Assembly: GCF_003334305.1 (NCBI RefSeq)
Contig: NZ_QOWS01000037.1
Reading direction: 5' to 3' (one strand)
DNA: 24,028 nucleotides
Source of the DNA: Escherichia coli
GTDB lineage: Bacteria > Pseudomonadota > Gammaproteobacteria > Enterobacterales > Enterobacteriaceae
Position numbers and translations under genes: made by a program. Position 1 is the first letter of the stretch; each line of letters starts with the position of its first letter. Below the pieces are notes generated by a model. The model saw nothing but the letters and a program-made list of their open reading frames with translations, made no database searches and was not told the DNA's origin. Positions 21,792 through 22,490 of the stretch are shown here, one piece after another.

Positions 21792-22490
21792 ATGAATAAA
21801 ATCCTGTTAGTTGATGATGACCGAGAGCTGACTTCCCTATTAAAGGAGCTGCTCGAGATGGAAGGCTTCAACGTGATTGTTGCCCACGATGGGGAACAGG
21901 CGCTTGATCTTCTGGACGACAGCATTGATTTACTTTTGCTTGACGTAATGATGCCGAAGAAAAATGGTATCGACACATTAAAAGCACTTCGCCAGACACA
22001 CCAGACGCCTGTCATTATGTTGACGGCGCGCGGCAGTGAACTTGATCGCGTTCTCGGCCTTGAGCTGGGCGCAGATGACTATCTCCCGAAACCGTTTAAT
22101 GATCGTGAGCTGGTGGCACGTATTCGCGCGATCCTGCGCCGTTCGCACTGGAGCGAGCAACAGCAAAACAACGACAACGGTTCACCGACACTGGAAGTTG
22201 ATGCCTTAGTGCTGAATCCAGGCCGTCAGGAAGCCAGCTTCGACGGGCAAACGCTGGAGTTAACCGGTACTGAGTTTACCCTGCTCTATTTGCTGGCACA
22301 GCATCTGGGTCAGGTGGTTTCCCGTGAACATTTAAGCCAGGAAGTGTTGGGCAAACGCCTGACGCCTTTCGACCGCGCTATTGATATGCACATTTCCAAC
22401 CTGCGTCGTAAACTGCCGGATCGTAAAGATGGTCACCCGTGGTTTAAAACCTTGCGTGGTCGCGGCTATCTGATGGTTTCTGCTTCATGA
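21792..22490 (+). CDS. cpxR: OmpR-family response regulator CpxR
   Basis: 232 aa, MNKILLVDDDRELTSLLKELLEMEGFNVIVAHDGEQAL..., receiver domain with conserved Asp (LLLLDVMMP) and winged-helix output domain; GGAGG Shine-Dalgarno at 21777-21781. Confidence 0.97.
   Translation: MNKILLVDDDRELTSLLKELLEMEGFNVIVAHDGEQALDLLDDSIDLLLLDVMMPKKNGIDTLKALRQTHQTPVIMLTARGSELDRVLGLELGADDYLPKPFNDRELVARIRAILRRSHWSEQQQNNDNGSPTLEVDALVLNPGRQEASFDGQTLELTGTEFTLLYLLAQHLGQVVSREHLSQEVLGKRLTPFDRAIDMHISNLRRKLPDRKDGHPWFKTLRGRGYLMVSAS

Follow-up and report, generated by a model that had tools for sequence, protein, structure and literature searches.

Four-Base Overlaps in Escherichia coli Operons

The arrangement of cpxR and cpxA closely resembles that of ompR and envZ in Escherichia coli and Salmonella, in which the gene for an OmpR-family regulator, paralogous to CpxR, is followed at a distance of -4 by a histidine kinase gene and the regulator is made in excess. 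The ompR-envZ pair has been called translationally coupled (PMC6557628; bioRxiv 10.1101/2021.08.03.454913). An insertion in ompR is polar on envZ, and coupling has been argued experimentally for that operon, which differs from cpxRA in that it serves another signalling system. In the distance table of E. coli K-12 gene pairs, cpxR-cpxA (b3912/b3911) is itself entered at -4, as are ompR-envZ, kdpD-kdpE, baeS-baeR, and qseB-qseC; phoPQ and creBC are found at -1, narXL at -8, cusRS at -11, rstAB at +3, basRS at +9, and phoBR at +57 (PMC10666635, supplementary file 3). Tight junctions are the rule in the other two-component operons of E. coli, and overlap is frequent but not universal, as the non-overlapping basRS and phoBR illustrate. 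Coupling efficiency drops steeply with distance, and the -4 of cpxR-cpxA falls within the stop-to-start range of approximately -8 to +10 bases applied in the same study, the supplement of which scores the pair as ‘CMPLX not’ (PMC10666635).

[quoted passage not shown] A Shine-Dalgarno motif aided reinitiation in four of the five tested pairs, with a contribution that ranged from essential to none (Huber et al., PMC6728339). [quoted passage not shown] In addition, many such -4 pairs encode subunits of a complex, whereas CpxR and CpxA, scored as not forming one, are made at approximately 10:1 rather than 1:1. The bioB-bioF pair resembles cpxR-cpxA both in its -4 distance and in the great weakness of its downstream Shine-Dalgarno sequence. 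Because bioBF has both of these features and is uncoupled, the two together are no guarantee of coupling.

The cpxR-cpxA Overlap and the Start of cpxA

The window, the whole stretch of 24,028 bases that was analysed, is E. coli chromosome; all of its bases are 100% identical in strain A7, and a search of 5426 complete E. coli genomes found it in all of them. Read directly from the window, positions 22487–22490 are ATGA. The cpxR coding sequence (21792–22490, + strand) encodes a 232-residue OmpR-family response regulator and ends with the stop codon TGA at 22488–22490 (...GTT TCT GCT TCA TGA), and the cpxA coding sequence (22487–23860, + strand) encodes a 457-residue sensor histidine kinase and opens with ATG at 22487–22489 (ATG ATA GGC AGC...). 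The two genes lie on the same strand and share stop and start bases, four in all (22487–22490, + strand), and thus form a unidirectional pair with an intergenic distance of -4. The list of open reading frames and the RefSeq/PGAP annotation of a strain with 100% identical DNA give matching coordinates and a matching 4-base overlap. The cpxP gene (21142–21642, - strand) adjoins cpxR divergently.

The upstream protein scores 508.6 bits against the CpxR equivalog profile NF008199 of NCBIfam (cut-off, 341) over its full length, residues 1–232, and corresponds on identical DNA in RefSeq to WP_001033722.1, which is composed of a REC domain plus a winged-helix domain. The downstream protein scores 824.7 bits against the CpxA equivalog profile NF007007 (cut-off, 486) over residues 1–456 and corresponds to WP_000580417.1. 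The original prediction, which named the genes cpxR and cpxA, placed a stop/start overlap at 22487–22490, and regarded it as expected rather than novel, is borne out on all three counts: sequence, reading frames, and RefSeq agree on the position, both proteins pass their equivalog cut-offs, and a -4 distance for this pair had already been published for E. coli K-12. The overlap is already known, since it is present in every E. coli annotation as well as in that genome-wide table. It is real and ordinary, a very common operon arrangement.

An overlap exists only if CpxA begins at 22487. A start farther downstream, at GTG 22544, ATG 22550, or ATG 22562, would abolish it, and all three codons are present in frame. 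The reading frame of cpxA is closed upstream by TAA at 22445–22447, and ATG 22487 is the sole in-frame start before codon 20; the next in-frame ATG, GTG, or TTG, at 22544, is that codon and, like the other downstream candidates, falls within the first transmembrane segment. Conservation of the motif RIFAIFW (codons 8–14, upstream of 22544) extends from E. coli to Vibrio, and this motif must be translated; the alignment of CpxA to its NCBIfam profile begins at residue 1. A downstream start is therefore so improbable, on account of the transmembrane location and the conserved upstream motif, that it was rejected.

The NF007007 profile has six extra N-terminal positions relative to E. coli CpxA, residues 1–456 of which align to profile positions 7–462. 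The CpxA orthologue at locus L086 (1201–1260 of that locus) has an N terminus that is six residues longer (MIGLFNTLNSLTARIF...), and its start is still at an ATGA overlap, so the insertion lies after the start codon rather than before it.

A fusion of CpxR to CpxA by programmed -1 frameshifting was also considered. Relative to cpxR, cpxA is read in the -1 frame, which is free of stops only from 22448 onward, and reading of the sequence between 22448 and 22487 reveals no slippery heptamer of the form X XXY YYZ. This candidate was rejected.

The tetranucleotide ATGA is by itself unremarkable, with 97 copies on the + strand of the window where length/256 predicts approximately 94. The significance of the copy at 22487 lies in its placement, where a 232-codon reading frame ends at the earliest codon from which a 457-codon reading frame could start. 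Among the 26 annotated features of the window, one of which is cut by the window end, cpxR-cpxA is the only overlapping pair. All 5426 complete E. coli genomes are matched by a 30-base query with the junction at its centre, and since megablast requires a perfect seed of 28 or more bases, the 26 bases at 22471–22496 are invariant in all of them. The nearby polymorphisms at 22469 (TAT to TAC, in cpxR) and 22498 (AGC to AGT, in cpxA) are synonymous. The strain with T at 22498 has a different CpxA accession, which could stem from a change elsewhere.

The Junction in Cpx Orthologues

Orthologous loci were retrieved with an alignment of CpxA-like representatives, and three contigs that encode individual representatives were added. 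The ATGA junction (-4) is found in Citrobacter werkmanii (98% CpxA identity), in Photorhabdus caribbeanensis (81%), and at L086 (54%), where a divergent cpxP-like gene of the LTXXQ family lies alongside. A -1 overlap takes its place in Vibrio hannami (TGATG, 45%), Vibrio bivalvicida (TAATG, 47%), and locus L085 (TAATG, 51%), and gaps of 4, 14, and 25 bases separate the genes in Haemophilus haemolyticus (40%), Shewanella xiamenensis (36%), and locus L087 (43%), respectively. The junction is thus within -4 to +4 in seven of the nine other Cpx orthologues examined. From this nine-orthologue comparison, tightness of the junction is conserved, and the ATGA itself characterises the enteric branch. 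Because coupling would be weak across the +14 and +25 junctions of Shewanella and L087, the Cpx system can do without tight coupling, a point that counts against coupling of cpxRA.

A broader scan of a genome collection yielded 80 loci among the matches listed, of which at least 6 are true Cpx orthologues and the others are different regulator-kinase operons. The matches listed include 71 operons of many phyla whose OmpR-type regulator gene is followed by a kinase gene; at least 13 of these allow a -4 start, at least 6 allow a -1 start, and at least 26 have a gap of 0–10, a tally that is indicative only, as the start codons were set mechanically.

Ribosome-Binding Sites and Transcription of cpxA

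The two genes differ greatly in their ribosome-binding sites. The Shine-Dalgarno sequence of cpxR, CGGAGGTA (RNA CGGAGGUA) at 21776–21783 on the + strand, is located 8 bases before the ATG, and its predicted duplex with the 3′ end of 16S rRNA, at -10.8 kcal/mol, is the strongest of the 25 window genes scored. The best Shine-Dalgarno-like match of cpxA, GATGGTT (GAUGGUU) at 22472–22478 on the + strand, is also 8 bases before the ATG, lies inside the cpxR coding sequence, and is very weak, the fifth weakest of the same 25 genes. At -2.5 kcal/mol, it does not qualify as an intragenic Shine-Dalgarno motif. Matches are similarly weak, from -2.2 to -2.8 kcal/mol, in the other three orthologues whose junction is ATGA. 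The two Vibrio orthologues, with their -1 overlap, have a moderate GAGGAA of approximately -6 kcal/mol (L007 1465–1488 and L008 1465–1488). The contrast between a -1 junction with a moderate Shine-Dalgarno sequence in Vibrio and an ATGA junction with almost none may reflect lineage-specific tuning of kinase translation.

These differences bear on whether cpxA could recruit ribosomes de novo to its own weak site, with the overlap a by-product of compaction or of stop/start drift and the low level of CpxA relative to CpxR a consequence of strong and weak ribosome-binding sites on a shared mRNA. The difference of 8.3 kcal/mol between the Shine-Dalgarno sequences of cpxR and cpxA could alone yield a large difference in expression, bioBF, which combines a -4 overlap with a weak Shine-Dalgarno sequence, provides a precedent for such initiation, and the -4 spacing is not shared by all orthologues. 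Opposed to this reading are the coupling of four of the five tested -4 pairs, the -4 to +4 junction of seven of the nine other Cpx orthologues, and the predicted local fold, in which the AUG of cpxA is partly paired and the mean unpaired probability is lower at cpxA than at cpxR (0.35 vs 0.50). Independent initiation is, in our judgment, an unlikely explanation that nonetheless deserves some weight.

Transcription of cpxA from a promoter inside cpxR would likewise diminish the importance of the overlap, as part of CpxA would then be derived from a separate transcript. A consensus scan of the + strand between 21600 and 22600 revealed no sigma-70-like promoter, and the constancy of the CpxA:CpxR ratio during Cpx induction argues for a single regulated transcript (PMC4985592). 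An internal promoter is accordingly very improbable. No terminator-like site was found by consensus scan within or between cpxR and cpxA.

Predicted mRNA Structure at the Junction

Fold prediction places a stem-loop at 22454–22508 (+ strand) that partly pairs the AUG of cpxA, which we treat as weak evidence. The minimum-free-energy fold of 22437–22536 has a predicted energy of -33.2 kcal/mol and z = -1.9 relative to shuffled sequences; the corresponding values are z = -1.9 in Citrobacter and z = -1.4 at L086. Single-sequence folds of the junctions of Photorhabdus (z = -0.5), Vibrio, Haemophilus, and L085 display no such signal. In an alternative fold, computed for a 40-base window, the AUG of cpxA is located in a loop.

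Such a structure suggests a mechanism in which ribosomes that reach the end of cpxR melt the stem-loop and unmask the cpxA start for fresh 30S subunits, so that cpxA would still depend on the translation of cpxR but different ribosomes would translate each gene. This mechanism draws on a predicted fold that is more stable than shuffles in E. coli, Citrobacter, and L086 and that pairs part of the AUG. The z-scores are modest, though, in that 7 to 10 of 200 shuffles of the E. coli and Citrobacter junctions, and 22 of 200 at L086, form equally stable folds; in Photorhabdus, the structure is absent though ATGA is kept; the alternative fold exposes the AUG; and the near lack of a Shine-Dalgarno sequence leaves little with which to recruit a free 30S subunit. 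Unmasking is thus improbable, and a conserved junction structure was kept as a weak rival only, because the orthologues with an ATGA junction are too few for a covariation test.

Proposed Coupling and the Ratio of CpxA to CpxR

Absolute quantification by targeted mass spectrometry gives CpxA:CpxR:CpxP as 41:393:36 molecules per cell, and neither activating nor inhibiting conditions shift the CpxA:CpxR ratio from the 1:10 seen without induction (PMC4985592). This ratio is far from equimolar, and therefore any coupling of cpxA to cpxR must be inefficient (approximately 10% or less). In the literature searched, no direct experiment on coupling or polarity in cpxRA was found, and the names cpxR and cpxA are absent from the supplements of PMC10746267, in which synthesis rates from ribosome profiling were sought.

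We consider it fairly probable that cpxA is translated by low-frequency termination-reinitiation after cpxR, such that CpxA is made as a fixed small fraction of CpxR. At the level of sequence, the very weak Shine-Dalgarno match of cpxA, its sole start codon, the lack of a promoter-like site in cpxR, and the conservation of the junction in orthologues point towards coupling. Since cpxA is almost without a Shine-Dalgarno sequence of its own, CpxA synthesis would be tied to that of CpxR in a small, constant proportion. The same feature also counts against coupling, in that cpxA nearly lacks the motif that contributed to reinitiation in four of the five tested pairs.

In this mechanism of termination-reinitiation, cpxR and cpxA would constitute one bicistronic operon. 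The strong cpxR site would recruit ribosomes efficiently, and after translating cpxR these would stop at UGA 22488–22490, whereupon approximately 1 in 10 or fewer would restart on the AUG located one base upstream (22487–22489) and produce CpxA. Both the dependence of cpxA on cpxR translation, which would make this a case of translational coupling, and the frequency of reinitiation are what we infer from the features of the junction. The kinase would thereby be held at roughly a tenth of the regulator, whatever the activity of the promoter.

The claim of the original prediction that the overlap implies translational coupling is thus retained in part: coupling is likely, given that four of five tested -4 pairs are coupled (PMC6728339), and “implies” is too strong a word in view of the uncoupled bioBF. 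Similarly, the proposal that the arrangement fixes the stoichiometry of kinase and regulator is consistent with the constant 1:10 ratio in three conditions (PMC4985592), but that ratio is far from equimolar, and co-transcription alone could suffice to hold it. A constant 1:10 is equally expected from co-transcription combined with two independent, fixed initiation rates. As the pair encodes no stable equimolar complex, fixing the stoichiometry means, in this case, holding a ratio of approximately 1:10.

A further idea, which we offer tentatively and are more inclined to doubt than to accept, is that the junction is a tuned valve. In this proposal, the -4 overlap without a Shine-Dalgarno sequence, as seen in enteric-type junctions, would have been selected to pass approximately 10% of terminating ribosomes and would hard-wire the regulator:kinase ratio that underlies the kinase/phosphatase balance of the Cpx system, and Vibrio would have been retuned with a -1 overlap and a moderate Shine-Dalgarno sequence. 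The hint that the junction is possibly tuned to the kinase:regulator ratio comes from this contrast between the enteric and the Vibrio junctions. If the proposal is correct, single-base changes within 22472–22490 would move the Cpx set-point and leave both proteins untouched.

The significance of the overlap beyond housekeeping is small, and no open question is made newly testable by it. It is a further instance of a general pattern among two-component operons, in which the kinase level stays a small, fixed fraction of the regulator level. The overlap does matter when strains are built: a cpxR allele that loses its last codons through an insertion or deletion, or whose translation stops early, is likely to lower CpxA too, and the phenotypes of such cpxR mutants would be confounded because of this likely effect.

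Other Features of the Window

On DNA identical to the window, RefSeq annotates rpmE, priA, cytR, ftsN, hslVU, menA, rraA, zapB, glpFKX, fpr, uspD, yiiS, yiiR, yiiQ, tpiA, cdh, sbp, pfkA, and fieF, followed by cpxP on the - strand and then cpxR and cpxA on the + strand. The window opens inside the 3′ end of the gene for an RHS element core protein (1–76, - strand; annotated in strain A7). Several other strains match the window in two pieces spread over approximately 31 kb of the record, with rhsC among the annotated features, so the left edge of the window is variable among strains. Matches to two Rfam elements are located where they are expected, the L31 ribosomal-protein leader upstream of rpmE (455–507, - strand) and the ClpQY (hslVU) promoter element directly upstream of hslV (5119–5176, + strand). 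In the intergenic region between sbp and pfkA, a match to the sRNA ES036/CssrF (18829–18870, + strand; 46.2 bits) is located on the strand opposite both genes.

The divergent intergenic region of cpxP and cpxR contains GTAAA-ACAAC-GTAAA at 21722–21736. This candidate site matches GTAAA-N5-GTAAA, the CpxR-binding consensus, and would fit autoregulation of the operon. Antisense to cpxA, a 168-codon reading frame (23273–23779, - strand) that is unannotated in RefSeq is probably a chance reading frame in GC-rich coding sequence. Downstream of cpxA, a REP-type element that matches Rfam naRNA4/CssrE (23875–23952, + strand; 78.6 bits, gathering score 59.5) starts 15 bases past the stop codon. In strain FCI51, which is near-identical to the window (100.0%), a gene for an IS621 transposase of the IS110 family is located approximately 285 bases downstream of cpxA (L001 4046–5026).
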